From Candidatus Omnitrophota bacterium (GTDB taxonomy: Bacteria; Omnitrophota; Omnitrophia; Omnitrophales; Aquincolibacteriaceae), in contig JAUYMS010000028.1 of NCBI GenBank assembly GCA_030698625.1, positions 3,854 through 67,853 of the forward strand: 64,000 bases of DNA, read 5' to 3'. Below the pieces are notes generated by a model, which was given only the letters and a program-made list of their open reading frames with translations, was not told the origin of the DNA and ran no database searches. This document shows positions 14,881 to 60,116 of the stretch, one piece after another. The translations under genes and the position numbers were made by a program. The first letter of the stretch is position 1. Each line of letters starts with the position of its first letter.

Positions 14881-14883
14881 GTG

Positions 14884-15534: not shown

Positions 15535-15552
15535 GGGTCTCTCCTTTAGGGG

Positions 15553-16194: not shown

Positions 16195-16226
16195 TCGGTT
16201 TCTCCTTTAATTTACGCCTACTGGTT

Positions 16227-28270: not shown

Positions 28271-28505
28271 AGACAGGCTTTGCCGGGTCCTTGCCGAAGT
28301 ATTCGGTGTGCCGGCGGAACAGATTAACGAAGACAGCAGCCCGGATACCATCGAGAATTGGGATTCCGCATCGCATATCAATATGATCTTGTCTCTTGAA
28401 TCGGAGTTCGATGTGAAGCTGACCCCCGAGCATGCCATGGAGATGTTGTCGGTAAAGCTCATTCGGATGATTTTGGAAGAGCTCGGGGTTAAAGATTTCA
28501 AATGA
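28248..28505 (+). CDS. Acyl carrier protein
   Basis: 85 aa. 'ENWDSASHINMILSLE' phosphopantetheine-attachment Ser context. Confidence 0.7.
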   Translation: MMMSPMTEDRLCRVLAEVFGVPAEQINEDSSPDTIENWDSASHINMILSLESEFDVKLTPEHAMEMLSVKLIRMILEELGVKDFK

Positions 28506-32799: not shown

Positions 32800-32806
32800 G
32801 GAATTC

Positions 32807-43368: not shown

Positions 43369-43459
43369 GGTGATAACTGTAACGGCAGATGATACTTGAT
43401 TCGATCGGGAACCTCAAGAACATGTGGTCAAGGTGGGATTTGACTCCTATAATAAAAAG

Positions 43460-44683
43460 ATGAAAAAAGCCGAAAAGAACAGTACCCGGAACTGGATGCT
43501 CCTCGCGGCGGCTGTCGTCGCTCCACTCCTAATTGCTGAAATTGCATTGCACGGGTTTATCCCGGCAGCAGATCGGCCGGAGGCTTTTGCTCATCAGTTA
43601 AGCGAAAACCCCAAACTCTTTTATGATCCTGTGCCGAGAGCGAGTCGGGAAGTCACCTATTTTGAGGGGACCGTGGATGAGACCGCGGTCCGTTATGAGA
43701 TCAATGCGGCCGGTTTCCGGGATCGGGATTATTCGGTCAAGCCGCCTAGCGGCGTGGAGCGAATTGTTTTTCTTGGAGATTCGATTGTTTTTGGTTTTTC
43801 AGTAGACGGGCACGACGCTATGCCTAAACAGCTGGAACAGCGATTTCGGGATCATGATGATGCGACGCAAGTTCTTAATATGGGGGTATCGGGTTATGAC
43901 ACCGAGCAGGAGGTGGAATTTTTTAAGGTCAAAGGCGCCGCGTATGAACCGGATCTGGTTGTTGTGGGGTACGCATTGAATGATGCCCGTTATGCCTCGT
44001 GGGAACTCGATGTCTTACGGAATAATTGGGAGGCATTTGTCCGGCAGCCTGCGACGAACATTCGAACAAAGACCCTAGCATTCCTATTCAAAAACTCCCG
44101 AATCCTCGATCTTCTCAACCGACAATTTCATATTCAGAAGAGGGCATCATTCCTTCAGGCCTATCCGCTACTGTTTGATTTCGTTGAGGAGAAGTACTTG
44201 AGTCAGCGAGATCCGGAAGGGAGCCCGTATCGCCGTTTGGAAGCACTCATACAGCAAGAGGCGACTCGCCTGGGGACACCCGAACCGGCTCTCAACTACA
44301 TGATGCAGGGCATCGGTTTCCGTAATGAGAATCCTGTATTCTCATCGCACTGGCAGTTGAGTGAAGCCGCTTTTCGGGATCTGGCCCAGTTGTCGAAAGA
44401 GCGGGGGTTTGGCGTTGCGGTGGTACTATGGCCGCTCATGAGTTCCATGGCGACGTATCCGCTGGGTCCCTTGCATCAGTTTTTGCGAGTTAAGTTGGAG
44501 GCGATGGGCTTTGAAGTCATTGACCCGAAAGACTATCTGCAAGAACTCTGGATGAGTCATGGCGATAAATTGAGTCTCGACGGTATCCATTTTACACCCT
44601 GGGCGAATGAGAAAATCTCGAACTTCCTTTATCCCCGAATAAGAGACATTCTGAGGGCTCAAGCCTCAGATAATGATGGCTAG
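43460..44683 (+). CDS. Membrane-anchored SGNH/GDSL hydrolase (paralog 2 of 3)
   Basis: 'IVFLGDSIVFG' block I and 'DGIHFT' block V with an N-terminal TM helix. The alternative start 43424 was not preferred. Confidence 0.65.
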   Translation: MKKAEKNSTRNWMLLAAAVVAPLLIAEIALHGFIPAADRPEAFAHQLSENPKLFYDPVPRASREVTYFEGTVDETAVRYEINAAGFRDRDYSVKPPSGVERIVFLGDSIVFGFSVDGHDAMPKQLEQRFRDHDDATQVLNMGVSGYDTEQEVEFFKVKGAAYEPDLVVVGYALNDARYASWELDVLRNNWEAFVRQPATNIRTKTLAFLFKNSRILDLLNRQFHIQKRASFLQAYPLLFDFVEEKYLSQRDPEGSPYRRLEALIQQEATRLGTPEPALNYMMQGIGFRNENPVFSSHWQLSEAAFRDLAQLSKERGFGVAVVLWPLMSSMATYPLGPLHQFLRVKLEAMGFEVIDPKDYLQELWMSHGDKLSLDGIHFTPWANEKISNFLYPRIRDILRAQASDNDG

Positions 44684-44895: not shown

Positions 44896-45909
44896 TTGAG
44901 AATGCAGAATTGTCTTGTTACAGGTGGTGCAGGTTTTATTGGAAGTCATTTGGTAGAGCGCTTGTTGCGTGACGGTCACCGAGTGACTGTGCTGGATAAC
45001 CTTAGTACAGGTCGCCTGAGCAATCTGTCGTTTGCGCAAGATAATACCTCTCTGACTTTTCATCAACAGGATGTCGCGGAGGCGTCTGCCATTGAGGGGT
45101 TCTTCAGCGGAGTTGATTGGGTGTTTCACTTGGCGGCGTTAGCAGATATTGTCCCGTCGATAGAGCGGCCGCTTGATTACCATCGCGCGAATGTCGACGG
45201 TACGGTTGCTGTGCTGGAAGCTTCGCGAAAGGCGGGAGTTAAAAGATTCGTCTACACGGCGTCATCTTCCTGTTACGGCATCCCCGATAAATACCCTACT
45301 CCCGAGTCCGCGCCTATTCGTCCCCAATACCCCTATGCCCTAACCAAATACATCGGCGAGACGACAGCGATGCACTGGACGCAGGTATACGGGTTGCCCG
45401 TTGTGTCTCTGCGGCTCTTTAACGTTTATGGACCGCGGTCGCGGACATCAGGAACATATGGCGCCGTATTTGGAGTGTTTTTGGCCCAGAAGCTTGCCGG
45501 TAAGCCATTTACGGTTGTTGGTGACGGAAAACAAACGAGGGACTTCACTTTTGTCTCGGATGTGGTTGATGCCTTCGTCGCAGCGGCGGCTTCAGATAAG
45601 TCCGGTGAGATCTTGAACATTGGTTCGGGCAATACGTACAGCGTTAATCTTCTGGTGAGTCTCCTGGGCGGAGAGGTTGTTTATATTCCCAAGCGCCCAG
45701 GGGAGCCCGACTGCACGTTTGCGGACACGGCAAGGATCCGCGACGTGCTCTCATGGACTCCGCGAGTCAGTTTTGAAGAGGGCGTCCAAGTGATGCTCGA
45801 CAATATCGAATGTTGGCGGGAGGCCCCTGTCTGGAACGAGTCGTCCATCGCTGAAGCGACACGGGGTTGGTTCCAATATCTTAGTCCCGAAGGAGCTTCG
45901 AAGCAATGA
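44896..45909 (+). CDS. NAD-dependent sugar epimerase/dehydratase (UDP-glucuronate decarboxylase / 4-epimerase-like)
   Basis: 'CLVTGGAGFIGSHLVERL' motif and YxxxK 'YALTK'. Confidence 0.8.
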   Translation: MRMQNCLVTGGAGFIGSHLVERLLRDGHRVTVLDNLSTGRLSNLSFAQDNTSLTFHQQDVAEASAIEGFFSGVDWVFHLAALADIVPSIERPLDYHRANVDGTVAVLEASRKAGVKRFVYTASSSCYGIPDKYPTPESAPIRPQYPYALTKYIGETTAMHWTQVYGLPVVSLRLFNVYGPRSRTSGTYGAVFGVFLAQKLAGKPFTVVGDGKQTRDFTFVSDVVDAFVAAAASDKSGEILNIGSGNTYSVNLLVSLLGGEVVYIPKRPGEPDCTFADTARIRDVLSWTPRVSFEEGVQVMLDNIECWREAPVWNESSIAEATRGWFQYLSPEGASKQ

Positions 45910-47447
45910 CCACCAAACTGGAAATTATTAAAGAAAAGATTTTCGAGATCGACCGCATCGATGGCGAACTGGATGCAGCGCGTAGCCAAGGGAAAAAGGT
46001 CGTGCAATGCCACGGGGTTTTTGACCTTCTTCACATCGGTCATATTCGGCACTTAAACAGGGCCAAGAAGATGGGGGATGTGCTCGTTGTTTCGATTACG
46101 CCGGACCGCTTTGTGAACAAGGGCCCCCACCGCCCCGCGTTTCCGGACCAATTGCGCGCGGAGGCTATTGCCGCGCTCGACTGTGTCGACTATGTCGTGA
46201 TCAACAACTGGCCCAAGGCAATTGAAGCAATCAAGCTCATCAAGCCGGATATGTACGTCAAAGGACGTGACTACCGTGATGCGGCCAAGGATCACACCGG
46301 CGGAATTTTGGAAGAAGAGTCGGCCGTGCAATCGATCGGCGGCAAGCTCGTCTTCACCGATGAGATTGAGTTCAGTTCCACAAGCCTGATCAATCAGCAC
46401 CTCGGCGTTTTTCCGAAAGAAGTCACGCAGTATCTGACCGATTTTGCCAAGCGCTATTCCTCAGACGATGTGATCGGATTTATCAAGCAAGAGCAGCCCC
46501 TTAAGGTCCTGGTAATCGGTGAGGCCATTGTCGACGAGTATCAGTATTGTGAAGCCATCGGGAAGTCATCGAAAGAGCCCATGCTTGCGGTTAAGCGTCT
46601 TTCGACGGAAAAATTTGCGGGGGGTATCTTGGCGGTTGCCAATCACGTCGCGAATTTCTGCGATGAAGTCGGCCTTGTCACAATGCTGGGCACGAGGCAT
46701 TCTCAGGAAGAGTTTATCCGAGAGAAGATGAACGAGAAAATCCACAATGTGTTCCTCTATCGAGAGGATTCGCCCACGATTGTGAAGCGCCGCTTTGTGG
46801 AGAGCTACTTCTTTACGAAGATGATGGAACTCTATGAGATTAACGATGGCTTGCTCACAGTTGAAGACAATCGCGCACTTTGCAAAGCCCTTGAGGCCGA
46901 GGTTCCTAGGTATGACGTTGTGATCGTTGTTGATTTCGGGCATGGCCTGATGAGTTCGGACGCGGTTAAAGTTATTTGCGATAAAGCCAAGTTTTTGGCC
47001 GTTAACGCGCAGTCGAATGCCGGCAATATCGGATACCAGACGATTTTAAAATACCCTCGAGCGGATTATATTTGCATGGCCGAGAATGAGATTCGAATGG
47101 AAGCGCGTGACCGGCGAGGTGACCTGAGACAGATGATTATCGACTTAGCGAAGAAAGTTAAATGTGAGCGTATTACGGTGACCCGCGGTAAAAACGGGTG
47201 TTTGTGCTATTGCCGTGAGGAAGGTTTTTCGGAAGTCCCGGCATTTGCCGGCCAAGTACTTGACCGCATGGGTGCGGGCGATTCATTTCTTTCGCTGACC
47301 TCGGGGTTGGTTGCCCGAAAAGTGCCCACCGAAGTTGTGGGCTTTGTTGGGAATGTAACTGGGGCACAAGCGGTGGCTACGGTGGGCCATCGGCGTTCCG
47401 TGGAACGTGCGCCGCTTTTTAAGCACATCGAATCATTGCTGAAGTAA
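45906..47447 (+). CDS. Bifunctional cytidylyltransferase-like nucleotidyltransferase (N-terminal) and PfkB sugar kinase (C-terminal); HldE-like with reversed domain order
   Basis: N-terminal 'CHGVFDLLHIGHIRHL' H/TxGH motif. C-terminal PfkB 'GAGDSF' signature. Confidence 0.7.
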   Translation: MTTKLEIIKEKIFEIDRIDGELDAARSQGKKVVQCHGVFDLLHIGHIRHLNRAKKMGDVLVVSITPDRFVNKGPHRPAFPDQLRAEAIAALDCVDYVVINNWPKAIEAIKLIKPDMYVKGRDYRDAAKDHTGGILEEESAVQSIGGKLVFTDEIEFSSTSLINQHLGVFPKEVTQYLTDFAKRYSSDDVIGFIKQEQPLKVLVIGEAIVDEYQYCEAIGKSSKEPMLAVKRLSTEKFAGGILAVANHVANFCDEVGLVTMLGTRHSQEEFIREKMNEKIHNVFLYREDSPTIVKRRFVESYFFTKMMELYEINDGLLTVEDNRALCKALEAEVPRYDVVIVVDFGHGLMSSDAVKVICDKAKFLAVNAQSNAGNIGYQTILKYPRADYICMAENEIRMEARDRRGDLRQMIIDLAKKVKCERITVTRGKNGCLCYCREEGFSEVPAFAGQVLDRMGAGDSFLSLTSGLVARKVPTEVVGFVGNVTGAQAVATVGHRRSVERAPLFKHIESLLK

Positions 47448-47459: not shown

Positions 47460-48071
47460 ATGGATTTTCAGTATCTGCCGATCACGAATTACCTTCGGCG
47501 TCTTGGGGAAATTGCCTTATGGACGGAGGTGAACGCCGGTGCGGGAGAGAACACGAATGCTATTTCGCTGGATGACGGCTCGAAGCGGGCGGTGCAGATG
47601 ATTCTGGACGCCAAGTTTGGGCAATCGAAGATCATGCTGGTCGGTAACGGTGGAAGTGCCGCGATCGTCAGTCACATGCAAAACGATCTCTGCGATTCCG
47701 TCAAAGCCCGGGCGATGGTCTTTAACGAGCCGCCTTTCTTGACTGCCGTATCGAATGACCACGGATACGCGACGTTTTTTGAAGACGCTGTGAAACTCTG
47801 GGCAGAGCCCGGAGATGTACTGATTGCAATCAGCAGCTCAGGGAAGTCCGAGAATATTCTGCGCGCGGTGCGTGCGGCTCGGGCCAAAGATTCAGAAGTG
47901 ATCACCCTGTCGGGATTCGATGAGAAGAACCCGCTAAGAAGTTTGGGTGACCTCAACTTTTATGTGCCTGCAAATGAATACGGTATTGTCGAAACGGCGC
48001 ACGGAATCCTATGCCACTATATGAGCGACGCTGCTCTGGCAGCTTTAAACGTGCCGAGGCCGGTCGCTTAA
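47460..48071 (+). CDS. gmhA: SIS-domain phosphoheptose isomerase (copy 2)
   Basis: 'IMLVGNGGSAAIVSH' SIS motif. Confidence 0.7.
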   Translation: MDFQYLPITNYLRRLGEIALWTEVNAGAGENTNAISLDDGSKRAVQMILDAKFGQSKIMLVGNGGSAAIVSHMQNDLCDSVKARAMVFNEPPFLTAVSNDHGYATFFEDAVKLWAEPGDVLIAISSSGKSENILRAVRAARAKDSEVITLSGFDEKNPLRSLGDLNFYVPANEYGIVETAHGILCHYMSDAALAALNVPRPVA

Positions 48072-48073
48072 GC

Positions 48074-49102
48074 ATGAGAAAGTTCCAAGAAATACTGGTC
48101 ACGGGTGGGGCTGGATACGTCGGCGCGCGGTTAGTGCCTAAGCTCCTCAAACGCGGCTATAAGGTGCGCGTCCTTGACCTGTATCTTTTTGGCGAAGGAT
48201 TCTGGCCGGAGTGGGATGGATCCGCAAAACTGACCGAAATCAAAGGGGATTTGCGGGATACGGAAACGGTCCGCCGGGCGGTTCAAAGATGTGATGCGGT
48301 CATCCATTTAGCGTGCATTTCAAATGACCCAAGCTTCGAGTTAAACCCGGATCTCGGGCGCTCCATCAATTACGATGCTTTTCGACCGCTCGTGACCATG
48401 AGCCGGGATGCGGGTGTGAAACGGTTTATCTACGCGTCTTCCTCGAGCGTATACGGAATCAGTGACCGCCCAAACGTGACCGAAGATCACCCGCTTAAGC
48501 CGCTCACAGATTACAGCAAGTATAAAGCGCTCTGCGAAGAGATTCTTGCCGAGTACGAGAGCCCCGACTTTACAACGGTGGTTCTGAGGCCGGCGACGGT
48601 TTGCGGGTATTCGCCCAGGCAACGCCTCGACTTAACGGTGAATATTTTGACGAATCACGCTGTGCATAACGGCAAGATTAAAGTTTTTGGCGGAGAGCAG
48701 CTGCGCCCCAATATCCACATTGAGGACCTTACGGACCTGTATGTTCAATTGTTGGAACTACCTGCTGAAAAGGTGGCGGGTAAGACGTACAACGCGGGTT
48801 ACGAAAATCAAAAGGTGAAGGACATTGCGATGGCTGTCAGCAGCGTGGTTCGTGCAATGATACCGGAGCGCTCAGACCTCGCAATAGAGACAACACCGAC
48901 TGACGACAATCGCTCGTATCACATTTCTTCTGCAAAAATAAAGGGCGAGTTGGGATTTGCCCCCAAGAGGACCATCGAAGATGCGGTCAAGGATTTAGTG
49001 GCTGCTTTCCAGGCAGGCAAAATTCCGAATGCGATGACGGACAGCCGCTATTTTAATATCAAGACCATGCAGGAAAGCGTACTGGCGCAGCCGCAGTCAT
49101 GA
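48074..49102 (+). CDS. NAD-dependent sugar epimerase/dehydratase
   Basis: 'ILVTGGAGYVGARLV' motif. Internal ATG start chosen. Confidence 0.75.
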   Translation: MRKFQEILVTGGAGYVGARLVPKLLKRGYKVRVLDLYLFGEGFWPEWDGSAKLTEIKGDLRDTETVRRAVQRCDAVIHLACISNDPSFELNPDLGRSINYDAFRPLVTMSRDAGVKRFIYASSSSVYGISDRPNVTEDHPLKPLTDYSKYKALCEEILAEYESPDFTTVVLRPATVCGYSPRQRLDLTVNILTNHAVHNGKIKVFGGEQLRPNIHIEDLTDLYVQLLELPAEKVAGKTYNAGYENQKVKDIAMAVSSVVRAMIPERSDLAIETTPTDDNRSYHISSAKIKGELGFAPKRTIEDAVKDLVAAFQAGKIPNAMTDSRYFNIKTMQESVLAQPQS

Positions 49103-50067
49103 AAACGCATCCCTCTATCGAATTATATCGCGAAATGTTGCGCATTCGGCGCGTCGAAGAACGTATTGCCGAGCTCTATCCGGAGCAGGAAATCCGCTGC
49201 CCTGTCCATTTGTGTATCGGCCAAGAGGGTGTGGCTGTCGGCGTATCTGCAAACCTGAAGCCCCAAGATTATGTCCTCAGCGGCCATCGTTCGCACGGGC
49301 ATTACTTAGCACGCGGCGGAAACTTGAAGGCCATGATGGCAGAGCTGTGGGGCAAGGTTACGGGTTGCTGTCAGGGTAAGGGCGGCTCGATGCACTTGAT
49401 TGATTTGTCGGTCGGATTTCTGGCATCGACGCCGATTGTGGCCAGTACGATTCCGATCGCCGTCGGCGCCGCCTTGGGTTCGGTGATGAAGAACGAGGAT
49501 CGTGTCACGGTCGTGTACTTTGGCGAAGCCGCGACTGAGGAGGGCACGTTCCACGAAGCGGCTAATTATGCGGTCTTGAAGAAGTTGCCCGTGGTTTTTG
49601 TTTGCGAAAATAACCTTTATTCTGTCTATTCGCCGTTGGAAGTACGCCAACCGCCCGAACGCTCCCTCGTCGAGTTAGCGCGGGGCCACGGAATGGAAAG
49701 TCACTGGGAAGATGGCAACGATGTCCTTGCGGTGAAACGCTTGAGTGAACACGCCATCGATCATGCCCGCGCGGGTAAAGGTCCCAGCCTTCTGGAGTTT
49801 TCGACCTACCGTTGGTATGAGCACTGCGGTCCGAATCTTGATAACCATATCGGTTATCGCACGGAAGAAGAATTCCTCACATGGAAGAAGACTTGCCCCC
49901 TTTTGAAGTTAAGAGAGTCTTTACTTGCTGAAGGGATTTGTGCTGAGCCGGATCTGTCGTTGATCGAAGAAGATTTGAAGGCTGAAATTGATGACGCAGT
50001 TCGGTTTGCAAAAGAAAGCCCGTTTGGTGAAGAAGATTTGGCCTATCAACATATCTATGCAACCTGA
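49099..50067 (+). CDS. Thiamine-diphosphate-dependent dehydrogenase E1 alpha subunit
   Basis: TPP motif region 'GQEGVAVG...YRSHGH...GKGGSMH'. Confidence 0.8.
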   Translation: MKTHPSIELYREMLRIRRVEERIAELYPEQEIRCPVHLCIGQEGVAVGVSANLKPQDYVLSGHRSHGHYLARGGNLKAMMAELWGKVTGCCQGKGGSMHLIDLSVGFLASTPIVASTIPIAVGAALGSVMKNEDRVTVVYFGEAATEEGTFHEAANYAVLKKLPVVFVCENNLYSVYSPLEVRQPPERSLVELARGHGMESHWEDGNDVLAVKRLSEHAIDHARAGKGPSLLEFSTYRWYEHCGPNLDNHIGYRTEEEFLTWKKTCPLLKLRESLLAEGICAEPDLSLIEEDLKAEIDDAVRFAKESPFGEEDLAYQHIYAT

Positions 50068-50075
50068 CGAGCGTC

Positions 50076-51293
50076 ATGCCTGCAGACAAGTTTGATATTG
50101 CGATCATCGGTGGCGGGATCGTCGGGCTGGCGACAGCGCTAAGTCTTGCTAAAAGCCGGCCCGATTTACGGCTGTGCGTGTTTGAGAAGGAAGCATTGAT
50201 CGGGGAGCATCAGACATCGCATAATAGCGGCGTGATTCATTCCGGCATTTATTACGCGCCGGGCTCTTTGAAAGCGAGTCTTTGTGTGAAAGGCGTCGGC
50301 GCGATGATTTCTTTTGCTAAGGAAAACGGCGTGCCCTTTGAGCAGTGCGGGAAAGTTATTGTGGCAACCCGAGAAGAACAGAGACCGAGACTCAGAGCGC
50401 TATTCGAGCGGGGAATAGCAAACGGCGTTCCCGGTCTGCGTATACTTAACCGAACGGAGCTCCTTGAGCTCGAGCCGCATGCTGAAGGACTCGAAGCCAT
50501 TCACTCGCCGACTACCGGCATCATTGATTTTCGAAGGGCGGCCGAAGTCATGGCCGAAAAGTTTAAGGCCGGCGGCGGTAGCGTAGAGACCATGGCGAAA
50601 ATGGTTTCAGCTGAACATACCGGCTCCGAGCTTGTGTTGAAAATAGGCCGGATGGAAATCCGGACAAAGTATTTGATTAATTGCGGCGGTCTTTATTCGG
50701 ACACGATCGCCTTGATGCTCGGGGTTGAGCCGGGCGTGAGGATTATTCCGTTTCGCGGCGAGTACTATCTTATCCGGAATGAAAAGCGGCATTTAGTGAA
50801 GAATCTTATTTACCCGGTTCCAGACCCGGACTTACCTTTTTTGGGTGTTCATCTGACGCGTACAGTGGACGGGAAATTGGAAGCCGGACCGAACGCGATC
50901 CTGGCAACAGCGCGTGAGGGGTATCGGCGATCCGATTGGAAGACCGGAGAGTTTCTTGCAACATTGAGTAGCCCGCATTTTTGGAACATGGCGCGCCGTT
51001 ATTGGAAGACCGGTATTTTGGAGTGTTACCGTGCGGTGAGTAAGCGATCATTTGCGCGAGAGCTGCAAGGTCTGATAAAGGGCATTAGCGAAGATGATCT
51101 GGTGGATGGGCCAAGCGGCGTGCGGGCCCAATGCGTGGCAGAGGATGGCACGCTGGTTCACGATTTCAAGATTGTTGAAGGGCCGCGGTCAATTCACGTT
51201 GTAAACGTACCGTCACCGGCGGCAACGGCATCACTGGCGATCGGGGAGTATATCGCGGGGCTCGGAATTAAATCCTATGACGAGAGAACTTAA
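50076..51293 (+). CDS. FAD-dependent oxidoreductase (L-2-hydroxyglutarate oxidase / DAO family)
   Basis: 'FDIAIIGGGIVGLATA' dinucleotide fold and a 'SGVIHSGIYY' motif typical of this 2-hydroxyacid oxidase (LhgO-type) family. Confidence 0.75.
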   Translation: MPADKFDIAIIGGGIVGLATALSLAKSRPDLRLCVFEKEALIGEHQTSHNSGVIHSGIYYAPGSLKASLCVKGVGAMISFAKENGVPFEQCGKVIVATREEQRPRLRALFERGIANGVPGLRILNRTELLELEPHAEGLEAIHSPTTGIIDFRRAAEVMAEKFKAGGGSVETMAKMVSAEHTGSELVLKIGRMEIRTKYLINCGGLYSDTIALMLGVEPGVRIIPFRGEYYLIRNEKRHLVKNLIYPVPDPDLPFLGVHLTRTVDGKLEAGPNAILATAREGYRRSDWKTGEFLATLSSPHFWNMARRYWKTGILECYRAVSKRSFARELQGLIKGISEDDLVDGPSGVRAQCVAEDGTLVHDFKIVEGPRSIHVVNVPSPAATASLAIGEYIAGLGIKSYDERT

Positions 51294-52338
51294 ATATTTT
51301 CAAGCAATTCGCGAAGCGTTGGACCTGAGTCTGGAGCAGGATCCCTCTGTGTACTTGATGGGGCTGGGTGTGCCGGACCCTAAGGGGATCTTTGGCACGA
51401 CGCTGGGTCTTCAGGAGAAGTATGGCCCGGAGCGCGTGATGGATATGCCGACGGCAGAGAATGGCATGACGGGTGTTGCCCTGGGGTCAGCGATTGCGGG
51501 GATGCGGCCGGTCATGGTTCATCAGCGACTCGACTTCGCACTGCTGGCAGTGGAACAGATCGTGAATCAAGCTGCGAAATGGCATTACATGTTTGCCGGT
51601 AAGAGCTCGGTGCCGATGGTGATTCGATTGGTGATCGGACGAGGTTGGGGCCAAGGGCCGCAACATTCGCAGAGTCTCCAATCGTGGTTTGCTCATGTCC
51701 CGGGTCTCAAGGTTGTTATGCCGGCAACACCTTACGATGCGAAGGGATTAATGCTTTCCAGTATACGGGATGATAACCCGGTCATATTCTTGGAGCATCG
51801 CTGGCTTCACAATATGTTTGGTGCAGTGCCGGAAGGTGATTATGAAGTGCCGATCGGGAGAGCTCATGTTATTCGCGAGGGAAGGGATGTTACGATTGCC
51901 GCAGTGTCGCATATGGTCGTAGAAGCTCTGCAGGCGTCGAAAATGCTGGCAGAAGTAGGTATTGAAGCCGAGGTTGTTGACGTTCGCACCCTGCGTCCCC
52001 TGGATACGGAAACCATCGCAGCCTCGGTGCGTAAGACGCGGCGTATCCTGGTGGCCGATACCGACTGGAAAACAGGCGGCTTCAGCGCTGAAATTGTCTC
52101 ATGGGTGTGTGAAAACCAGTTTGATATCTTGAAGACAGCGCCGAGACGCGTGGCGTTGTCGGATTGCCCCGTGCCGACATCGCAGGTTCTTGCGAATCCT
52201 TGTTACCCACGGCCGGTAGATATTGCGCGCCAGGTATGCGAGATGGTGGGGCAGTCGACAGCGGATATTCAAGTACCCGTTGAATCAAGCGGAATACCGT
52301 TGGACATTCCGGATGCAAGTTTTGCGGGGCCTTTCTAA
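51277..52338 (+). CDS. Thiamine-diphosphate-dependent dehydrogenase E1 beta subunit (transketolase-like Pyr and C-terminal domains)
   Basis: E1-beta-like organisation with no lipoyl or E2 domain nearby. Confidence 0.8.
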   Translation: MTRELKYFQAIREALDLSLEQDPSVYLMGLGVPDPKGIFGTTLGLQEKYGPERVMDMPTAENGMTGVALGSAIAGMRPVMVHQRLDFALLAVEQIVNQAAKWHYMFAGKSSVPMVIRLVIGRGWGQGPQHSQSLQSWFAHVPGLKVVMPATPYDAKGLMLSSIRDDNPVIFLEHRWLHNMFGAVPEGDYEVPIGRAHVIREGRDVTIAAVSHMVVEALQASKMLAEVGIEAEVVDVRTLRPLDTETIAASVRKTRRILVADTDWKTGGFSAEIVSWVCENQFDILKTAPRRVALSDCPVPTSQVLANPCYPRPVDIARQVCEMVGQSTADIQVPVESSGIPLDIPDASFAGPF

Positions 52339-52339: not shown

Positions 52340-53494
52340 ATGACAACAAGAGCAGCCGATAAAGAGACAGTCTCCGAAACACGACAGGTGCCGTACGTGA
52401 ATATTACGGGACAGCATGCGGGTCTCAAAAAGCAATTGCTCCGGGAATTCGAACGCGTTATCGATAGCGGCCAATTCGTGCTAGGTGAGGATGTGGGGAT
52501 ATTTGAAAAGCGTTTCGCCGAATTGTGCGGTGTTTCGTATGCTGTTGCCGTCAATTCCGGCACAGACGCACTCCTCTTAGCGTTGCGCGTCCTGAAGGTG
52601 GGTGAGGGCGACGAAGTTATTACGGCGCCAAACTCGTTTGTGTCGACGGCGAGTTGCATACGTCTTACCGGTGCGATGCCGGTCTTTGCCGACGTCGGGG
52701 AAGACTACAACATCGATCCCTCCAAGATTGAGGCTGCAATAACTGAGCGCACGAAGGCGATTTTGCCGGTGCATCTTACGGGACGCACTGCCGACATGGA
52801 TGCCATACTCGCGATAGCCAAAAGACATGAGATTCTCGTTGTTGAGGACGCCGCGCAAGCCGTCCTATCGGAATATCGCGGACGTCGCGCGGGTTCCTTC
52901 GGTGTTCTTGGGTGTTTCAGTCTTCATCCGCTAAAAACGCTCAATGCCTGCGGCGACGGCGGAGTTATTACAACAAACGACGAGAGGCTCTACAAACGGC
53001 TTCAGGTTTTACGTAACTTGGGTCTGGAGCATCGCGACGATTGCGTGGTCTGGACGGGGAACTCTCGCTTGGATACGATACAGGCTGCCGCGTTGCTCGT
53101 GAAGATGGACTATCTCGAGGCGTGGACTGCGGGCCGACGGAAGAACGCTGAATTTTATCGGCGTGAACTAGCCGGTGTTGCCGGGGTGCGGTGCCCGGAG
53201 CCGAAGAATCACGAAAGACCGGTGTACCACACGTTCGTGATTCGTGCCGAGCGGCGCGACAACCTCAAAAAGTATTTGGCAGATCAGGGAATCGGCTCGG
53301 CGGTGCATTACCCTGTTCCTATCCATATGCAAACGGTCGCCAAAGATCTTTGTGTGGCTGAGGGCAGTTTGCCTGAGGCCGAGACGCAATCGAAGGAAAT
53401 ATTGAGCCTTCCTGTTTATCCTGAGCTCGGCAAAGAAGACCTCGCCTATGTTGTTTTTTACATAAAAAAATTCTATCGGAGCGAAAATATATGA
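52340..53494 (+). CDS. DegT/DnrJ/EryC1 PLP sugar aminotransferase (tandem copy 1)
   Basis: DegT family. Start at ATG 52340. Confidence 0.8.
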
Positions 53495-54615
53495 GCACAA
53501 AGACAATGCAAGTGAAGTTCTCATATTTGGACCGCCAGTTTGAGAACATCGAGGACTACTTAGACGATATCCGTCAGGTGGTGAAGTCCGGTGATTTTAC
53601 GCTGGGGGTCGCGGTTCGTGAATTCGAGTCACGTTTTGCAAGGCTCTCCGGAGTCGCCCATGCCGTCGGAGTGGGAACGGGAACTGATGCGCTTGCGATG
53701 CCGCTCAAGGTGTTAGGCGTGGGGCCGGGCGACGAGGTGATTACGACGCCGATGACCTTCATCGCGACGGTCGGTGCTATTGCGAAGACGGGCGCCACCC
53801 CGGTTTTTGTTGATAGCGAAGACGGCTTTGTGATTGATCCCGACAAAATTGAGGCTGCTATCACGCCGCGGACAAAGGCGATTCTTCCGGTGCACTATAC
53901 CGGGAATGTGGCTGATATGCCGCGTATTGCGGCAATCGCCCAAAAACACAACCTCCTGATCGTCGAAGATGCCTGCCAATCGATCGCAGGGGCCATCGAC
54001 GGCAAACCGGTGGGCTCCTGGGGAGAGGCCGCAGGATTTAGCCTCCACCCATTGAAGAACTTGAATGTTTGGGGTGACGGGGGAATGATCATTACGCGCT
54101 CCGAAAAGTTGGCCGAACACTTAAGACTTTTTCGTAATCACGGGCTTGTAAATCGTGACGAGGTCTCCCTGTTCGGTTGGAACTGCCGCCTAGACAGTCT
54201 ACAAGCGGCCATCGGCAACCGTCTGATTGACCAGGTCGATTTTATTACCGACGGCCGAATTGCCAATGCCGCTCGTTATGATGACGGGTTGAAGGATTTG
54301 GCTGAATCAATATCCATTCCCGTAAGGCGGCCCGGAGTCAAGCATGTCTACCATCTCTACGTGATACGCGTTACGGAGCGCGATCGGTTGCTTAAGCATC
54401 TAATCGAAAACGGGGTTGAAGCAAAGGTGCACTACCCGATCCCGGTTCATTTGCAGGAGGGGGCCCGATCGCTGGGGTACAAGAAGGGCGACTTCCCTAA
54501 GTGCGAAGAGGATTGTGAGGATATCATTACTTTGCCCGCTCATCAGCATCTGGGCAATGATGAGATTGACTACACGATTGAGCAGGTAAGAAATTTTTAC
54601 AGGGGTAAGTCATGA
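53491..54615 (+). CDS. DegT/DnrJ/EryC1 PLP sugar aminotransferase (tandem copy 2)
   Basis: DegT family and paralogous to copy 1. Confidence 0.8.
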
Positions 54616-55868
54616 CGCTTAGTCTCAGAGAAGCAAGAATACGGAAGAAACAGCCTTATCGGCCGTTACTCGTGAATCTTGCCTTGCTGGTTTTTGTATG
54701 CGTTTTGGCGGTAGGCGCCGCCGAGGGCGTCCTACGCATAACGAAGTCCGTCAATCGCCTTCACAATCGAGCCACGAACATCTTTGATCCGGACATTGGC
54801 TACTACCATGGCCCGAAACAAAGTACGATATTCCGGTTCGAAGGACAGCGAATTCCGTATGGAACCAATAATTTAGGGTTCCGTGATAGGGACAGGGAAG
54901 TCCCCAAACCCGCGGACACTTACCGCGTTTTGTTTCTTGGCGACTCCTTCCTCGAGTCGCCGTGGTTGCCGAGTGAAGCCATTTTCCCGGCGGTTCTTGA
55001 GGAACGCTTCCGGGAGCGTGAGGTCGCTTCGGGCAAAAAGGTTGAATTTCTTAATTTTGGGGTCCTCGGTTATGGAACGGGTGTTCAGTACAATCAGCTT
55101 CTGAAAATAGGCGTTCAAACGGAGCCTGATTTTGTAGCGGTTGCATTCTTCATCAATGACATTTTAGACAACTATACGACTCCTCTTTTGCCGGGCGGCC
55201 GCCCGGATCCCGAATTTCTAGATCCGATCGATTATCACTTGGCTCATTATGCTAAGGATAGTACGGGGGGATGGCGGTTTATTCCGGCAGAGCCGTATCC
55301 GCATCGCGGCGCCGTGCGTACTTTTTTGAATAAGGAATTTCACCTCTATCAGTTTTTGGGAGACAGCTTTCCGGCTCTCAAAAAAGTGCTCCGCCTATTT
55401 GAGCGTAAGGCGCCGGAAGAGCATGTGACCGAAACCTCTGAGCGGAGGCTTGAACCGAACCAAATGTTTAATTTTCTTCAGTCTCCCCCGGTTGAGGTGG
55501 TGATCGGTTGGGAAGCTACCGAGTATATCCTTGGTGAAATGAAATCCTATCTGAGTCTGAAGGGAATCCCGATGATGTTAACCTTCCTGCCACCGGACTA
55601 TCTCCTATCGCGAGAGGCATGGGAAGCGGAAATGAAGGCCAGGGGTCTGAATCCTGACGAAGGGGCTATCGATCTTCCCGAGCAAAAGGTTAAGGCAATT
55701 TGCGAGAAGCTCGACATTGAGTTTGTGAGCCCGACAGCGAAGTTTCGCGCCTCGGGCAAGCAACTTCATTTTAAATCCGACCCTCACTTTAATGCGAGCG
55801 GGCACGCGCTTATGGCAGATGTGATGGAGACTTATTTCCAGAACCGGCTCGCGCCGGGAAGGAAATGA
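54612..55868 (+). CDS. Membrane-anchored SGNH/GDSL hydrolase (paralog 3 of 3)
   Basis: N-terminal TM helix. '[11 protein letters not shown]' block I and 'DPHFNASGH' block V. Confidence 0.7.
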
Positions 55869-56869
55869 ACAACATGGGAAAAGAAACGGTAGCAGTCATA
55901 GGCAGTAATTGTTTCACGGGAAGCCATGTCGTGGATCGTTTGCTGCAAGATAAGGATTTGAGGGGAATCGGTCTGAGCCGGTCGCCCGAAAAAAAGGACT
56001 TCTTCCTGCCATACAAGAGCCGGGCAGAGGCCGACTTCCAGTTCTTCCAAGTGGACTTAAATCGGCAGAGTGAGGAATTGATTCGTATTCTCGATGAGTT
56101 TGAACCGAGCACGGTGATCAATGTAGCGGCTTTAAGTGAAGTGGCACTTAGTAATTTTCAGCCTATGGACTACTTCGATACGAACACGATGGGGGTTGTG
56201 AAGTTGTGCAGCCAACTGCGCGAGCGCTCCTATTTGAAGAGGTATGTCCATATATCGTCTGCGGAAGTCTACGGCAGCTGTCCCGAACCGCTTTTGGAAT
56301 CAGCTCCGTTGAATCCTTCGACGCCGTACGCGGTTTCAAAGGCGGCCGGTGATATGTACCTGCAGACGCTCTACAAGAATTTTGATTTCCCTATGATGCT
56401 AATCCGGTCTACGAATGTCTACGGCCGGCACCAACAGCTTTTCAAGATCATCCCTCGAACGATTATTTATTTGAAGCAGGGGAAGACGCTCGAGCTTCAC
56501 GGCGGCGGAATGGCTGTGAAGACGTGGCTGCATATTCGCGATGTCTCCGAAGGGATTTACCAGGCGATGAAGAAGGGCAAGCCGGGGGAGATCTACCACT
56601 TTGCGGATGCGCACTCTTATACAATTCGGGATCTCGTGGAGCGCATCTGCCGGCTTATGGGCAAGGATTTCTCAGCGTGCACGAAAGACGTGGGCGAGCG
56701 TCTGGGGCAGGATGCGCGCTATGAGCTTGATTACGGAAAGGCGAAGCGGGAACTGGGGTGGCAACCGCGAGTTTCGTTCGAAGAGGGGTTGCGCGAGACC
56801 ATAGAGTGGCTGGAGAATGATCCGAATGAAATCGAAGGAGAGTCCTTGGTGTACGTTCACCAGGCTTAA
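55865..56869 (+). CDS. Extended-SDR sugar nucleotide dehydratase/epimerase with an atypical dinucleotide motif
   Basis: 'VAVIGSNCFTGSHVVDRL' replaces the canonical GGAGFIGS, while YxxxK is still present. Confidence 0.7.
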   Translation: MNNMGKETVAVIGSNCFTGSHVVDRLLQDKDLRGIGLSRSPEKKDFFLPYKSRAEADFQFFQVDLNRQSEELIRILDEFEPSTVINVAALSEVALSNFQPMDYFDTNTMGVVKLCSQLRERSYLKRYVHISSAEVYGSCPEPLLESAPLNPSTPYAVSKAAGDMYLQTLYKNFDFPMMLIRSTNVYGRHQQLFKIIPRTIIYLKQGKTLELHGGGMAVKTWLHIRDVSEGIYQAMKKGKPGEIYHFADAHSYTIRDLVERICRLMGKDFSACTKDVGERLGQDARYELDYGKAKRELGWQPRVSFEEGLRETIEWLENDPNEIEGESLVYVHQA

Positions 56870-56877: not shown

Positions 56878-57636
56878 ATGGAACTTGGTCTTGAAGGAAA
56901 AACGGCATTAATAGTGGGCGCAAGCCGCGGCATCGGACGGGCCGCAGCAATAACGCTCGCACAATACGGTGCGCAGATTACTGCGGTTGCCCGCTCGAAA
57001 GACGCACTGACCTCCCTGATCACAGGGCTTGGCGGAGAGGCCAAAGGACATTTGGGTATCGCCAAGGATCTCATGCCGGCAGAGGGTCCCGCAGAGATTC
57101 TCAGACAGTTGCAGGAAATGGGGCGCGACATCGACATTGTCATCCACTGTTTGGGCGGAACGCTCGGAGTCAAAGAACCGTTTTGTGACCCGGAGGCATG
57201 GCGCCGGGTTTTTCGTCTAAACCTTGATATTGCCGTAGAACTTAACCGTTATCTTATTCCGTTGATGCAGAAAAGAAAATGGGGCCGTGCCCTGCACGTC
57301 TCGTCAATCGCGGCAACGCTCACGCGAGGCTCTCTGGCATATTGTGCTGCAAAGGCTGCGTTGAATGCGTATGCGAGAAATCTCGGCTGCACGGTTGCCA
57401 GCGACGGTGTCGTGATTTCTGCTTTAATGCCGGGGGCGGTTCGATTCGACGATAATCCATGGGATAAGCTCTCAAAAGAGAAGCCCGAGCAGGCGGCGGC
57501 GTATCTGGAAGAGCGAATGGCGATCAAACGTTTTGCCAAGCCCGAGGAAATATCGGATTTTATTGCCTTTATGTGTTCCGAAAAGGCGGAGTTTGCGACG
57601 GGTGCCGTCGTGCCGATTGACGGGGGTTCGTGGTGA
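56878..57636 (+). CDS. Classical SDR oxidoreductase
   Basis: 'ALIVGASRGIGRAAA' motif. Confidence 0.75.
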   Translation: MELGLEGKTALIVGASRGIGRAAAITLAQYGAQITAVARSKDALTSLITGLGGEAKGHLGIAKDLMPAEGPAEILRQLQEMGRDIDIVIHCLGGTLGVKEPFCDPEAWRRVFRLNLDIAVELNRYLIPLMQKRKWGRALHVSSIAATLTRGSLAYCAAKAALNAYARNLGCTVASDGVVISALMPGAVRFDDNPWDKLSKEKPEQAAAYLEERMAIKRFAKPEEISDFIAFMCSEKAEFATGAVVPIDGGSW

Positions 57637-57655
57637 AGGTGTCTCTGTGGTGAAA

Positions 57656-58576
57656 ATGAAGACAAAACGGCAGCTGGGTATTTGCGACAGCCGCCTTGCA
57701 AGTTCAATACTTGGCGATTTTCTGATCTTGTTGGAGGAGCTCCAGATTAATTCGGCAATTCGTCAGATAGAGGCGCCGACTGATATTGCCATTCTCGGGG
57801 ATAATCCCGGATCGGATTTTCTCGCGATGGCGAAGGGTTTCAATGGAGTAGGGGAAATCTTTGTGCTTGCGTCCTATCGGGAACTCGAGGCCTTGATGGC
57901 CGAATCGGTCTATGAATACACTCCCTGGCCGGGGCTCGGCCCTGAGGGGGTATCGGGTTATCAATATGGCTATACGCTCTTCATCCAGGATTATTTCGGA
58001 AAGACGGGCGCAATTCCCTCGCTTGCACTCAAACCGGAATATCGCACTTGGGCGTGTGATTGGCTTAGGGAACAGGCCGGTTCCGTGAACACTATTGCCG
58101 TTCACCTGAAGAATAAGATCCGGCCTTCGGGGAAACCCGACTGGTACAACGCCCGGTTGGACGAATGGGAGACATTTTTTAGAACGATTCGCGGCCGTTA
58201 TGATGTGAAGTTCATCCTGGTTGGTAATGAAAGGGTGCCCGATGGGATTCGTAATCTCGAGAATATAATCGTGACGCACGAATGCGGCGGTACGATATTG
58301 AAAGACCTGGCTTTAATTGAGAACACACAGGCCTTTATGGGGGTTGCCAGCGGGCCCTGCCAGATGGCCATGTTTGGCCGACGGCCCTATGTTATTTTCA
58401 AGAACCCCGAACGGCATGTCGACCGGATGTTTGAAGAGCTCGGGAACCGGAATCAGTACGTTTTTGCTGCGCCCACGCAGAGATTTTTGCGGCGCTTCGA
58501 AACGAGTGCGACGTTGCTCGAAGAATTCGAAGCTGTTTATGCCGGCATTGAGACCACCGTTACACAAGGAAATTAA
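57656..58576 (+). CDS. Candidate GT9-like (heptosyltransferase family) glycosyltransferase
   Basis: C-terminal 'FMGVASGPCQMAMFGRRPYVIF' resembles the GT9 'DSGPMHLAAALG.P.VALFG' segment. Start chosen at ATG 57656. Confidence 0.45.
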   Translation: MKTKRQLGICDSRLASSILGDFLILLEELQINSAIRQIEAPTDIAILGDNPGSDFLAMAKGFNGVGEIFVLASYRELEALMAESVYEYTPWPGLGPEGVSGYQYGYTLFIQDYFGKTGAIPSLALKPEYRTWACDWLREQAGSVNTIAVHLKNKIRPSGKPDWYNARLDEWETFFRTIRGRYDVKFILVGNERVPDGIRNLENIIVTHECGGTILKDLALIENTQAFMGVASGPCQMAMFGRRPYVIFKNPERHVDRMFEELGNRNQYVFAAPTQRFLRRFETSATLLEEFEAVYAGIETTVTQGN

Positions 58577-58577: not shown

Positions 58578-59426
58578 ATGACAAACAGTCAAGAAAAACG
58601 CTTTACCGATAAGGTCGTCGCAGTTACGGGTAGTGCTCGAGGCATCGGTAAGAACATTGCGGCTGCATTTGCCGGAGAAGGCGCCTTTGTTTTTATTTGC
58701 GATATAAACACGGAAATGGGGAAGGCGACCGAAGACGAGTTTCGCAATCGCGGTCTGGCCTGTGAGTACCTGAAAGTGGATTTAGCCAAGAGCGGTGCTG
58801 CGGCAAAAATGGTGCAAGAGATCGTAAAGCGGAAAGGCTGTTTGGATGTGCTCGTCAACAATGCGCGCTCACGGCATCGTGTTTCGATGCTGGAAGAGAC
58901 CGAAGAATCCTGGGAGCAAGGGATGGCCGTTACCCTCAAAGGGGCATTTTTCGCCTCCCAGGAAGCGATCCGGGTCATGTCCGAAAGGTCCGGCGGCAGC
59001 ATTGTCAACATCAGCTCGGTGATGGCGGAAATGACATGCCATGAATCGCCCGTTTATCACATTGCGAAGGCCGGCGTGTCGCATATGACCCGTTACTTTG
59101 CAACTCATGGATCACCGCTGGGCGTGCGCGTCAATGCGGTTGTGCCGGGTTTCATCGTCCAGGACGAAAATCGCGAACGTTACGCCGGAACAGATAACAA
59201 AAGTTACCGGGAGGTCGGCGAATTCACGCATCCGGTGCGCACCGTAGGCAAATCGGATGATGTCGCTTACGCCGTGCTTTTCCTTGCCTCGACCGAGTCG
59301 TGTTTTATCACGGGGCAATGCCTCGTCGTCGACGGCGGCGCGACATTGCAGGAACAAAACAGCTTGATACATCGGTTTTCAAAAACGGGGCATGAGGGAC
59401 TTGAGAAGGCGGGCAAACGCATATGA
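58578..59426 (+). CDS. Classical SDR oxidoreductase (FabG-like)
   Basis: 'VVAVTGSARGIGKNIA' motif and YxxxK. Confidence 0.75.
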   Translation: MTNSQEKRFTDKVVAVTGSARGIGKNIAAAFAGEGAFVFICDINTEMGKATEDEFRNRGLACEYLKVDLAKSGAAAKMVQEIVKRKGCLDVLVNNARSRHRVSMLEETEESWEQGMAVTLKGAFFASQEAIRVMSERSGGSIVNISSVMAEMTCHESPVYHIAKAGVSHMTRYFATHGSPLGVRVNAVVPGFIVQDENRERYAGTDNKSYREVGEFTHPVRTVGKSDDVAYAVLFLASTESCFITGQCLVVDGGATLQEQNSLIHRFSKTGHEGLEKAGKRI

Positions 59427-60106: not shown

Positions 60107-60116
60107 GCCGAGGAAA

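Follow-up and report, generated by a model that had tools for sequence, protein, structure and literature searches.

Background

Two-gene enzymes that resemble the E1 component of pyruvate dehydrogenase (PDH) are known to act on sugars. Members of this thiamine diphosphate (ThDP)-dependent group, termed alphaKADH2, put a two-carbon (C2) unit derived from pyruvate on C3 or C4 of nucleoside diphosphate (NDP)-keto-sugars; they include AviB1/AviB2 (avilamycin), Plm8/Plm9 (paulomycin), the aldgamycin and kosinostatin enzymes, and KbDH-alpha/beta (kibdelomycin), the last of these in vitro (PMC4802897, PMC12247030). E1-type branchers appear restricted to C2 units from pyruvate, and the branch ketone is afterwards reduced, methylated or transaminated (PMC12247030). 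The known cases belong to actinomycete secondary metabolism and use deoxy-keto-sugars from 4,6-dehydratases. Here, we analyzed a 64-kb stretch of a metagenome-assembled genome (MAG) of a Candidatus Omnitrophota bacterium, referred to as the window (its contig is 132 kb long), in which E1alpha and E1beta genes bracket a gene for a flavin-dependent 2-hydroxyacid oxidase, LhgO. We suggest that the genes of this trio would act at two separate points of a single pathway for tailoring a sugar nucleotide: a short-chain dehydrogenase/reductase (SDR) encoded directly upstream would oxidize a sugar nucleotide at C4, E1 would add a ThDP-bound C2 branch, and LhgO would close a shuttle between 2-oxoglutarate and L-2-hydroxyglutarate (L-2HG). 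We put the probability of this full pathway, every function of which is predicted from sequence, at roughly 0.55.

Two other kinds of ThDP enzyme have been linked to sugar branching. For split transketolases (TKs), the proposed role in the miharamycin and amipurimycin pathways is to attach a hydroxyacetyl branch once an oxidoreductase has acted; the 13 predicted branching TKs are reported to come solely from Streptomycetes, and none has been demonstrated in vitro (PMC12247030). YerE and ErwE, which act in the formation of yersiniose and erwiniose in lipopolysaccharide (LPS), carry out the same overall reaction as that considered here, adding the acyl anion of a 2-oxo acid to an NDP-4-keto-sugar of a surface glycan, but they belong to another ThDP superfamily and are single-chain enzymes resembling acetolactate synthase (ALS) (PMC12247030, PMC9306805).

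The other half of the proposed pathway has its precedent in Campylobacter jejuni Cj1427, a GDP-heptose C4-dehydrogenase with a ping-pong mechanism, in which tightly bound NADH is re-oxidized by 2-oxoglutarate to give L-2HG (PMC10680097). The L-2HG oxidases of Escherichia coli (LhgD/LhgO, also YgaF) and Pseudomonas serve glutarate catabolism, in which L-2HG arises by hydroxylation of glutarate, and the published lhgO neighborhoods are csiD(glaH)-lhgO-gabDTP or lhgR-lhgO (PMC8206213, PMC6265302). In C. jejuni, neither an LhgO gene nor a ThDP-enzyme partner is known to have been described, and the literature that we searched mentions neither; we also found no account of LhgO with nucleotide sugars in the searchable literature. 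A related cofactor economy operates in Pseudomonas aeruginosa, where the 2-oxoglutarate-recycled dehydrogenase WbpB is coupled to the aminotransferase WbpE, which regenerates 2-oxoglutarate; a dedicated 2-hydroxyglutarate oxidase is not known from that system.

Results and discussion

An E1 pair and an L-2-hydroxyglutarate oxidase share a sugar-nucleotide operon

Three plus-strand open reading frames (ORFs) occupy positions 49099-52338 of the window, with limits exactly as given in an earlier note on this DNA, and their Pfam scores are far beyond chance. The first (49099..50067, 322 aa) encodes a predicted E1alpha (PF00676 E1_dh, 236 bits, E 5e-70), which in a 2-oxoacid decarboxylase/carboligase of the alpha2beta2 type is the subunit that binds ThDP; it matches P0001, a protein of an Omnitrophota MAG, at 100%. 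The last (51277..52338, 353 aa; MDP3920158.1) carries the pyrimidine-binding and C-terminal domains of a predicted E1beta (Transket_pyr, 116 bits, E 1e-33; Transketolase_C, 110 bits, E 1e-31). Both the alpha fold and the two beta folds of a 2-oxoacid dehydrogenase E1 are thus present. The active-site histidine and the ENN-Y metal ligands of E1alpha are conserved in an alignment with human PDH E1alpha, as are the equivalents of Glu59 and His128 (Geobacillus numbering) in an alignment of E1beta with the Geobacillus protein, and the genes for the heterotetramer look catalytically intact.

Between them lies the gene for a predicted flavin adenine dinucleotide (FAD)-dependent L-2HG oxidase/dehydrogenase, LhgO (50076..51293, plus strand, 405 aa; MDP3920157.1; PF01266 DAO, E 2e-54). 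The protein scores 510.8 bits against the L-2HG oxidase equivalog NF008726 (cut-off 299), a match that extends over positions 2-388 of the 389 in the model. A full-length comparison with E. coli LhgD gives 43% identity over 389 aa. Both results agree with the earlier suggestion that the middle gene is a 2-hydroxyacid oxidase. Its nearest homologues are 57-61% identical; in the clustered database the best identity listed is 61% even though the exact MDP3920157.1 is present, the cluster representative being a 53-aa fragment.

The trio sits inside an 18-gene plus-strand sugar-nucleotide operon that runs from 44896 to at least 63860 within a glycan island, so its placement in a glycan locus stands. 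In NCBI, proteins MDP3920153-158 span the operon from an HldE-like gene to E1beta. E1alpha overlaps the upstream SDR gene by 4 nt and is followed after 8 nt by LhgO; LhgO overlaps E1beta by 17 nt, and the likely ATG of the next gene lies 1 nt past the E1beta stop. The three genes are translationally coupled to one another and to their sugar-pathway neighbors.

To compare this arrangement with others, we used 92 related loci, which together with the window amount to 1.5 Mb, and 80 species loci centered on the SDR at 48074-49102, which came from a genome scan with this SDR as query (80 species, more than 15 phyla). The earlier note had called the gene order unusual, and it is: in about 26 related loci E1alpha directly adjoins E1beta and LhgO is lacking, and LhgO lies between the two subunits only in the window and in L089. 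A further locus, L007, has E1alpha followed by LhgO as in the window, and its contig ends within that region. The order is kept in L089 and L007 at only 58-67% protein identity.

The E1 pair has no E2/E3 partners in the loci searched

Absence of E2 and E3 had been noted from the window alone. Of the window ORFs of at least 150 aa, the set covered by our Pfam domain scan, none carries a lipoyl, 2-oxoacid_dh or Pyr_redox domain, and tblastn with E. coli AceF and Lpd gave zero matches at E<=1e-3 across the window and the 92 related loci. The absence of E2 and E3 thus holds for this 1.5 Mb, to which the search was confined. Neither E1 subunit reaches the curated PDH cut-offs of NCBIfam: E1alpha scores 300.7 bits against the PDH E1alpha model TIGR03182, 93 bits under its cut-off of 393.85, and E1beta scores 320.1 against the subfamily cut-off of 321 (NF006667) and 303.4 against the equivalog cut-off of 454.

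One could still regard the pair as the E1 of a normal pyruvate or acetoin dehydrogenase, with E2 and E3 encoded elsewhere in the genome and an incidental position in the glycan locus. Its best family matches are indeed PDH E1alpha and E1beta, and the top PDB matches are human PDH E1alpha (195 bits) and Geobacillus stearothermophilus PDH E1beta (245 bits); no alphaKADH2 structure was among the PDB matches to E1alpha. E1beta is only 1 bit short of the subfamily cut-off, and the E2/E3 search covered the window and related loci rather than the remaining MAG. Against this, the same E1 subfamily (58-71% identity) occurs inside the same sugar cassette in many phyla, right after the same SDR, and was never found alongside E2/E3 in the examined loci; the E1alpha score is far from the equivalog cut-off, and the E1 genes overlap those of the sugar pathway. 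We consider an incidental PDH extremely improbable. A housekeeping PDH or acetoin dehydrogenase E1, which the earlier note had named as one outcome that would overturn its idea, was rejected on the sub-cut-off scores, the lack of E2/E3 in 1.5 Mb and the conserved sugar-cassette setting, and the pair is predicted not to be part of a PDH complex.

A Cj1427-like dehydrogenase precedes the E1 genes

The gene directly upstream of E1alpha, SDR2cj (48074..49102, plus strand, 342 aa with the NCBI start), encodes a Cj1427-like sugar-nucleotide dehydrogenase, which we propose as the maker of the keto-sugar and the source of L-2HG. Its top PDB match is 6vo6/6vo8 (151 bits, E 5e-43; the runner-up scores 108 bits), with 32% identity to the 6vo6 chain over the full length, and it far exceeds the other SDRs of the window in similarity to that chain. 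We take 6VO6/6VO8 to be Cj1427, and the chain falls in a cluster of C. jejuni SDRs of 313 aa, as would be expected. The protein is an extended SDR with the Ser/Tyr/Lys set (motifs SSSSVYG and YSKYK, the YxxxK motif). A 4,6-dehydratase was also considered and rejected, as the dehydratase D-E acid pair is absent.

Like Cj1427, the enzyme belongs to what is probably a heptose-type pathway and is followed by enzymes that use keto-sugars. It differs in belonging to a separate and very widespread subfamily: true Cj1427 orthologues are 65-69% identical across Campylobacter, Helicobacter and environmental members and form their own 313-aa group. The window's subfamily is 59-67% identical across all 80 species, and among its carriers are cultured cyanobacteria, Azospirillum and Acanthopleuribacter as well as a Nitrosotalea MAG. 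Such identity throughout the phyla suggests that the SDR cassette has spread horizontally. The cassette is found on plasmid pCW1 of Crocosphaera watsonii WH 8501 (L016) and in the Nitrosotalea MAG (L049), with SDRs 64-66% identical to that of the window, which would agree with broad lateral transfer; L049 is a bin assigned to an ammonia-oxidizing archaeon and could be contaminated.

If the SDR releases a keto-sugar, an aminotransferase or E1alpha gene directly after it is to be expected. Counted over 71 related loci, a DegT aminotransferase gene lies directly 3' of the SDR in 22 and E1alpha in 10. The DegT arrangement would resemble the WbpB/WbpE system in its cofactor economy, with the aminotransferase supplying 2-oxoglutarate; WbpB itself belongs to the GFO/IDH/MocA family and is not an SDR.

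E1 and split transketolase alternate behind the dehydrogenase

Next, we determined which ThDP enzymes accompany the SDR. Across all 80 loci, 23 carry only E1alpha/beta, 37 only a split TK, one carries both and 19 carry neither, many of these 19 being on incomplete contigs. In loci that we classed as complete (at least 6 kb present on both sides), the corresponding counts are 11, 27, 0 and 7 (Fisher p = 3e-6, a test not corrected for phylogeny). The start of E1alpha or of the N-terminal TK gene (TK-N) lies no more than 150 nt from the SDR stop in about 20 loci, and the SDR is directly upstream of the E1 pair in the window and at least 11 related loci. The remaining complete loci have a DegT pair straight after the SDR, and in about 10 related loci a DegT-DegT pair precedes E1. 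The logic of the cassette is that a dehydrogenase makes a ketone, which a ThDP enzyme or an aminotransferase then consumes. Because E1 and TK exclude each other almost perfectly, they appear to share a role, which suggests two interchangeable ThDP modules of one cassette.

The window has E1 and not TK. In 37/80 loci, the replacement of E1alpha/beta by TK after the same SDR mirrors the published proposal in which an oxidoreductase is followed by a split TK. Examples of split TKs are found at 11033-12786 of L075 and 12769-14574 of L030 (TK-N and TK-C genes), the 37 TK loci being among L009-L088. Among cultured organisms, the E1 type is carried by Lusitaniella coriacea LEGE 07167, whereas Crocosphaera watsonii WH 8501 (pCW1), Microcoleus and Azospirillum isscasi have the TK type. 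An ALS- or YerE-like ThDP enzyme of the decarboxylase family lies near the cassette in L036, L040, L041, L054, L071 and L080; we found no ALS-like ThDP gene in the window.

It is conceivable that E1 and the split TK act earlier and branch nothing, making instead a ketose-phosphate, such as sedoheptulose-7-phosphate or a deoxy-ketose, that the isomerase, kinase and nucleotidyltransferase of the cassette take up. Transketolase naturally yields sedoheptulose-7-phosphate, the split TK is the commoner partner of the SDR, and a transaldolase/FSA gene (14884-15534) lies inside the other heptose operon of the window. The possibility that the split TK makes sedoheptulose-7-phosphate also undercuts the argument from interchangeable branching enzymes, and so counts against the pathway that we favor. 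The chemistry points the other way for E1, however: a PDH-type E1 that decarboxylates a 2-oxo acid cannot give an isomerizable ketose-phosphate, and its 1-deoxy product would have no C1 hydroxyl for a GmhA-type isomerase. E1alpha or TK-N typically comes right after the SDR rather than beside the isomerase or kinase, the mutual exclusion of E1 and TK speaks for a shared role, and the literature proposes the same sequence of oxidoreductase and split TK for branching. We consider precursor supply unlikely.

LhgO tracks the dehydrogenase

The earlier note had proposed that the FAD oxidase between the E1 subunits makes the 2-keto acid on which E1 acts. We therefore examined the genomic context of LhgO. 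The nearest homologues of the window's LhgO are almost all embedded in the same cassette, including 6/7 of those whose context was examined. Several of them have the SDR and no E1. L008 and L006 have the order SDR1-SIS-SDR-LhgO-GT2-radical S-adenosylmethionine (SAM) enzyme with no E1 nearby, and L090 has the SDR, LhgO, a dehydratase-like gene and GT2, again with no E1; in these three LhgO comes directly after the SDR, and two others, L007 and L089, have the order of the window. In two more species, the LhgO equivalog takes other places: it is the first cassette gene in L075, which has a split TK and no E1, and precedes SDR1 in L037. In contig CAYJSI010000001.1 the cassette is split, with LhgO beside the SDR and the series HldE-like-E1alpha-E1beta-DegT-DegT 37 kb away. 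The LhgO of L091 adjoins a bona fide GmhB phosphatase at the contig end. As a negative control, we inspected 53 soil-metagenome loci with LhgO proteins of 50-55% identity and found zero cassette genes.

In a Bacillota MAG (GCA_049324095.1; L094 7591-10942), a heptose C4-dehydrogenase is independently linked to L-2HG oxidation. The dehydrogenase is a true orthologue of Cj1427 (66% identity), and two genes upstream of it lies an LhgO equivalog (331.7 bits on the equivalog model, 35% identical to the LhgO of the window); the gene between the two encodes an HddA-like heptose kinase. Operons that combine a Cj1427 orthologue with LhgO are also present in L095-L097.

LhgO is an optional accessory of the cassette, linked to the dehydrogenase and not to E1. 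This follows from the loci with SDR and LhgO but without E1, from the split cassette, from the E1 loci without LhgO, which are the majority, and from the lack of any E1alpha or E1beta residue specific to LhgO-containing loci (the subunits are 66-67% identical to those of the window whether or not LhgO is present). The presence of LhgO in the operon would be explained by the release of L-2HG by Cj1427-type enzymes. The context differs from that of characterized LhgO proteins, which the window's LhgO resembles in sequence: we found no csiD/glaH, gabDTP or lhgR among window ORFs of at least 150 aa, a csiD/gab context also being seen in E. coli, and the L-2HG would come from a sugar dehydrogenase rather than from glutarate.

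These observations bear directly on donor supply, in which LhgO would make a 2-oxo acid from L-2HG for E1, and E1 would move a four-carbon unit of the succinic-semialdehyde type, or another acyl unit, to a sugar or amino sugar. The position of LhgO between the two E1 subunits and its coupling to both, with the order conserved in L089 and L007, are what one would expect of a donor-making enzyme, and donor-supplying enzymes do adjoin the ThDP enzyme in LPS branched-sugar clusters, for example ErwI/ErwJ beside ErwE (PMC9306805). Yet LhgO stands next to the SDR with no E1 in L006, L008, L090, L075 and L094, is parted from E1 in the split cassette, and is missing from the roughly 26 loci with adjoining E1 genes; nor do the E1 proteins differ where LhgO is present, and the characterized E1-type branchers seem limited to the C2 unit of pyruvate (PMC12247030). 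Oxidation of the L-2HG that Cj1427-type enzymes put out gives LhgO a simpler task. The proposal that the oxidase feeds E1 thus does not hold up well, and we consider it quite unlikely.

A proposed pathway to a branched sugar

The pathway that we favor would begin with an HldE-like kinase/nucleotidyltransferase and a GmhA-like isomerase, which would make an NDP-sugar, probably a heptose. The SDR at 48074-49102 would oxidize it to a keto-sugar, by homology at C4, and 2-oxoglutarate would re-oxidize the bound NADH, leaving L-2HG. LhgO would turn L-2HG back to 2-oxoglutarate and pass the electrons to the respiratory chain or O2; it would thereby keep the dehydrogenase cycling and clear a toxic dead-end metabolite. 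E1alpha/beta without E2/E3 would act as a ThDP carboligase: pyruvate would be decarboxylated, and the hydroxyethyl-ThDP carbanion would attack the ketone of the sugar. The predicted product is a sugar with a two-carbon (acetyl or 1-hydroxyethyl) branch and a tertiary alcohol, which the DegT aminotransferases, reductases, methyltransferases and a radical SAM enzyme would then elaborate. The DegT enzymes would also give 2-oxoglutarate from glutamate.

Transfer of a ThDP-bound C2 unit to a sugar, much as the earlier note had imagined for E1, is the best-supported role for the pair, because E1-type enzymes with this activity have been published and because the genes lie right after a dehydrogenase predicted to form a keto-sugar. 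The resemblance to alphaKADH2 includes the two-gene PDH-like E1, the lack of E2/E3 in the loci searched, a sugar-nucleotide cluster next to a predicted keto-sugar maker and the proposed chemistry, in which a C2 carbanion from pyruvate attacks the ring ketone, and the downstream reductases, methyltransferases and aminotransferases match the changes known to follow branching. The locus differs from alphaKADH2 clusters in its setting, an island of genes for a cell-surface glycan, in its occurrence in Omnitrophota and numerous further phyla, in the insertion of LhgO between the subunits, and in an acceptor that would come from a Cj1427-like dehydrogenase, probably acting on a heptose.

A different use of the same intermediate would be acylation, with E1 making acetyl-ThDP for N- or O-acylation of a DegT-made amino sugar and the FAD enzyme oxidizing hydroxyethyl-ThDP. 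Two aminotransferase genes directly follow E1beta, the DegT-DegT pairs that precede E1 in other loci would fit as well, and no GNAT or LbH N-acyltransferase is encoded within 44.9-63.9 kb. Many E1 loci, however, have no adjacent DegT gene, an acyltransferase may be encoded elsewhere or an SGNH protein may serve, and LhgO is a full-length soluble 2-hydroxyacid oxidase equivalog that occurs without any E1. No precedent is known for direct acyl transfer from ThDP to an amine in sugar pathways, and we regard this role as very improbable.

Several points weigh against the branching pathway. The SDR is a paralogue and not an orthologue of Cj1427, and since the two are only 32% identical, both the use of 2-oxoglutarate and oxidation at C4 are extrapolations from Cj1427. 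LhgO occurs in only 2/80 species loci centered on the SDR, and its presence could reflect general L-2HG housekeeping. The likeness to alphaKADH2 (AviB1/B2, Plm8/9, KbDH) is one of context and fold, and the test for E1/TK exclusion ignores kinship between loci. The identity of the sugar as a heptose is probable; it is drawn from sub-threshold GmhA and HldE matches, and GmhB-like phosphatases in two related loci (L091, above the cut-off, and L030) are hints. In the trio's own operon, the best NCBIfam matches to GmhA and HldE are sub-cut-off, the HldE domains are reversed and no phosphatase is encoded. Finally, the Mg/ThDP motif of E1alpha (residues ~142-144) reads GEA in place of the canonical GDG. 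Among 100 family members, the motif is GDA in 46, GEG in 27, GEA in 21 and GDG in 6; because of this variation, we take GEA to be a tolerated and common D/E interchange.

Distribution and novelty of the cassette

Carriers of the cassette belong to Omnitrophota, Chloroflexota, Planctomycetota, cyanobacteria, Alphaproteobacteria and other phyla, and one is an archaeal MAG. We tentatively propose, at somewhat below even odds, that it has spread horizontally across phyla as a surface-glycan cassette for C-branched higher sugars, in which a novel subfamily of C4-dehydrogenases driven by 2-oxoglutarate would be followed by E1 (acetyl branch) or, interchangeably, split TK (hydroxyacetyl branch), with a dedicated LhgO shuttle to the respiratory chain in some lineages. 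E1-type sugar branching is already known, so the system is not new in kind. What appears to be undescribed is an envelope-glycan cassette outside actinomycetes, its Cj1427-like partner, and the alternation of E1 and split TK with an embedded LhgO. A description of the cassette was absent from the searchable literature on heptose, transketolase or E1 in glycan clusters; the survey of branching ThDP enzymes by Krug et al. 2024 was outside the coverage of that search and may list such non-actinomycete loci.

If the proposal is true, E1-type and TK-type sugar branching would leave the realm of actinomycete antibiotics and enter general cell-envelope biology, and the E1 and TK alternatives behind one dehydrogenase would point to C-branched envelope sugars as a large and as yet unexplored group. 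The linkage of LhgO bears on whether the in vitro 2-oxoglutarate dependence of Cj1427-type dehydrogenases is physiological, and would be genomic evidence that 2-oxoglutarate is their physiological oxidant. It would also give bacterial LhgO a third physiological context, beside glutarate catabolism and metabolite repair. Biocatalysis groups seek carboligases of the ThDP type that yield tertiary alcohols, and the cassette points to such enzymes.

The rest of the operon and the glycan island

The functions of the remaining genes were predicted from Pfam and NCBIfam matches, and all genes of the operon are on the plus strand. The first cassette gene, SDR1 (44896..45909), encodes a GalE/UXS-like extended SDR (Pfam Epimerase, 219 bits); its top PDB matches are UDP-hexose 4-epimerases, and homologues of 59-76% identity are present in 48/80 related loci. 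It is followed by the HldE-like bifunctional gene (45906..47447; MDP3920153.1), in which the usual order appears reversed, with an N-terminal nucleotidyltransferase and a C-terminal PfkB sugar kinase (Pfam CTP_transf_like and PfkB). Its best NCBIfam matches, all sub-cut-off, are HldE and the rfaE domains of HldE, and the gene is found in 59/80 related loci. The predicted GmhA-like SIS-domain sugar-phosphate isomerase (47460..48071; Pfam SIS_2) matches phosphoheptose isomerases best in NCBIfam, below the cut-off, and occurs in 29/80 related loci.

Downstream of E1beta, two genes encode DegT-family aminotransferases dependent on pyridoxal phosphate, at 52340..53494 (PF01041, 378 bits) and 53491..54615 (PF01041, 362 bits); the second is 73% identical to its L089 counterpart. 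An SGNH/GDSL-like protein (54612..55868), possibly an O-acyl transferase or esterase, has weak GDSL matches, and its L089 homologue (55% identity) matches Pfam ALGX. Dh46 (55865..56869) encodes an SDR that resembles sugar-nucleotide 4,6-dehydratases (GDP_Man_Dehyd, 170 bits; TIGR01181, 209 bits, sub-cut-off), with an SSAEVYG motif containing a GMD-like Glu, and the corresponding gene comes directly after E1beta in several related loci. Two putative classical SDR reductases (56878-57636 and ~58590-59426; adh_short matches) flank an ORF of unassigned family (~57647-58576) for which we found no Pfam or PDB sequence match; its homologue in the Chlamydiae locus L001 likewise lies between reductase genes.

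A predicted SAM methyltransferase gene (59423-60106) recurs in 27/80 related loci and a B12-binding radical SAM gene (60033-61937) in 6/80. The best NCBIfam matches of the latter are P-methyltransferase families (Sden_1168, PhpK), below threshold, and the enzyme probably methylates a carbon of either the sugar or the branch. The last two genes of the operon within the window encode a putative epimerase/reductase SDR (61934-62830) and a Zn-dependent alcohol dehydrogenase (62796-63860), the latter recurring in 18/80 related loci.

The remaining window is one large glycan island, with pseudaminic-acid-type genes, a second GDP-heptose-type operon, a flippase, and YfhO and PMT-like proteins. The second heptose operon (13527-17321, minus strand) comprises genes for a GmhB-like HAD phosphatase, an HddC-like nucleotidyltransferase, the FSA/transaldolase mentioned above, a GmhA-like SIS protein and an HddA-like GHMP kinase, each of these assignments being the best match under its NCBIfam cut-off. 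At 11203-13559, a UDP-sugar 6-dehydrogenase gene adjoins one for a GFO/IDH/MocA oxidoreductase, as in WbpA/WbpB. WbpB-type enzymes take 2-oxoglutarate as oxidant, and the island might thus have in this pair another supplier of 2-hydroxyglutarate.

The pseudaminic-acid-type nonulosonic acid cluster (21249-34236) contains genes for PseB-like, DegT, NeuB and FkbH-like proteins, fusions of GT28C with GNAT and of MaoC with an SDR, a GFO/IDH/MocA oxidoreductase, a CMP-sugar-type cytidylyltransferase, a class-III aminotransferase and a HisH/HisF-like amidotransferase pair. This gene set suggests an unusually N-acylated nonulosonic acid. Two further ORFs inside the island (35283-36425 and 36422-38347) have no Pfam match, as is the case for the ORF between the reductase genes. 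SGNH/GDSL-type proteins are encoded at 39839-40948 (minus strand) and 43424-44683 in addition to the one in the operon, YfhO-family membrane proteins at 796-3141 and 40879-43368 (minus strand), and PMT-like proteins at 3239-5092 and 19252-20841. Together, the SGNH, YfhO and PMT-like proteins suggest extracytoplasmic steps of glycan acylation and transfer.

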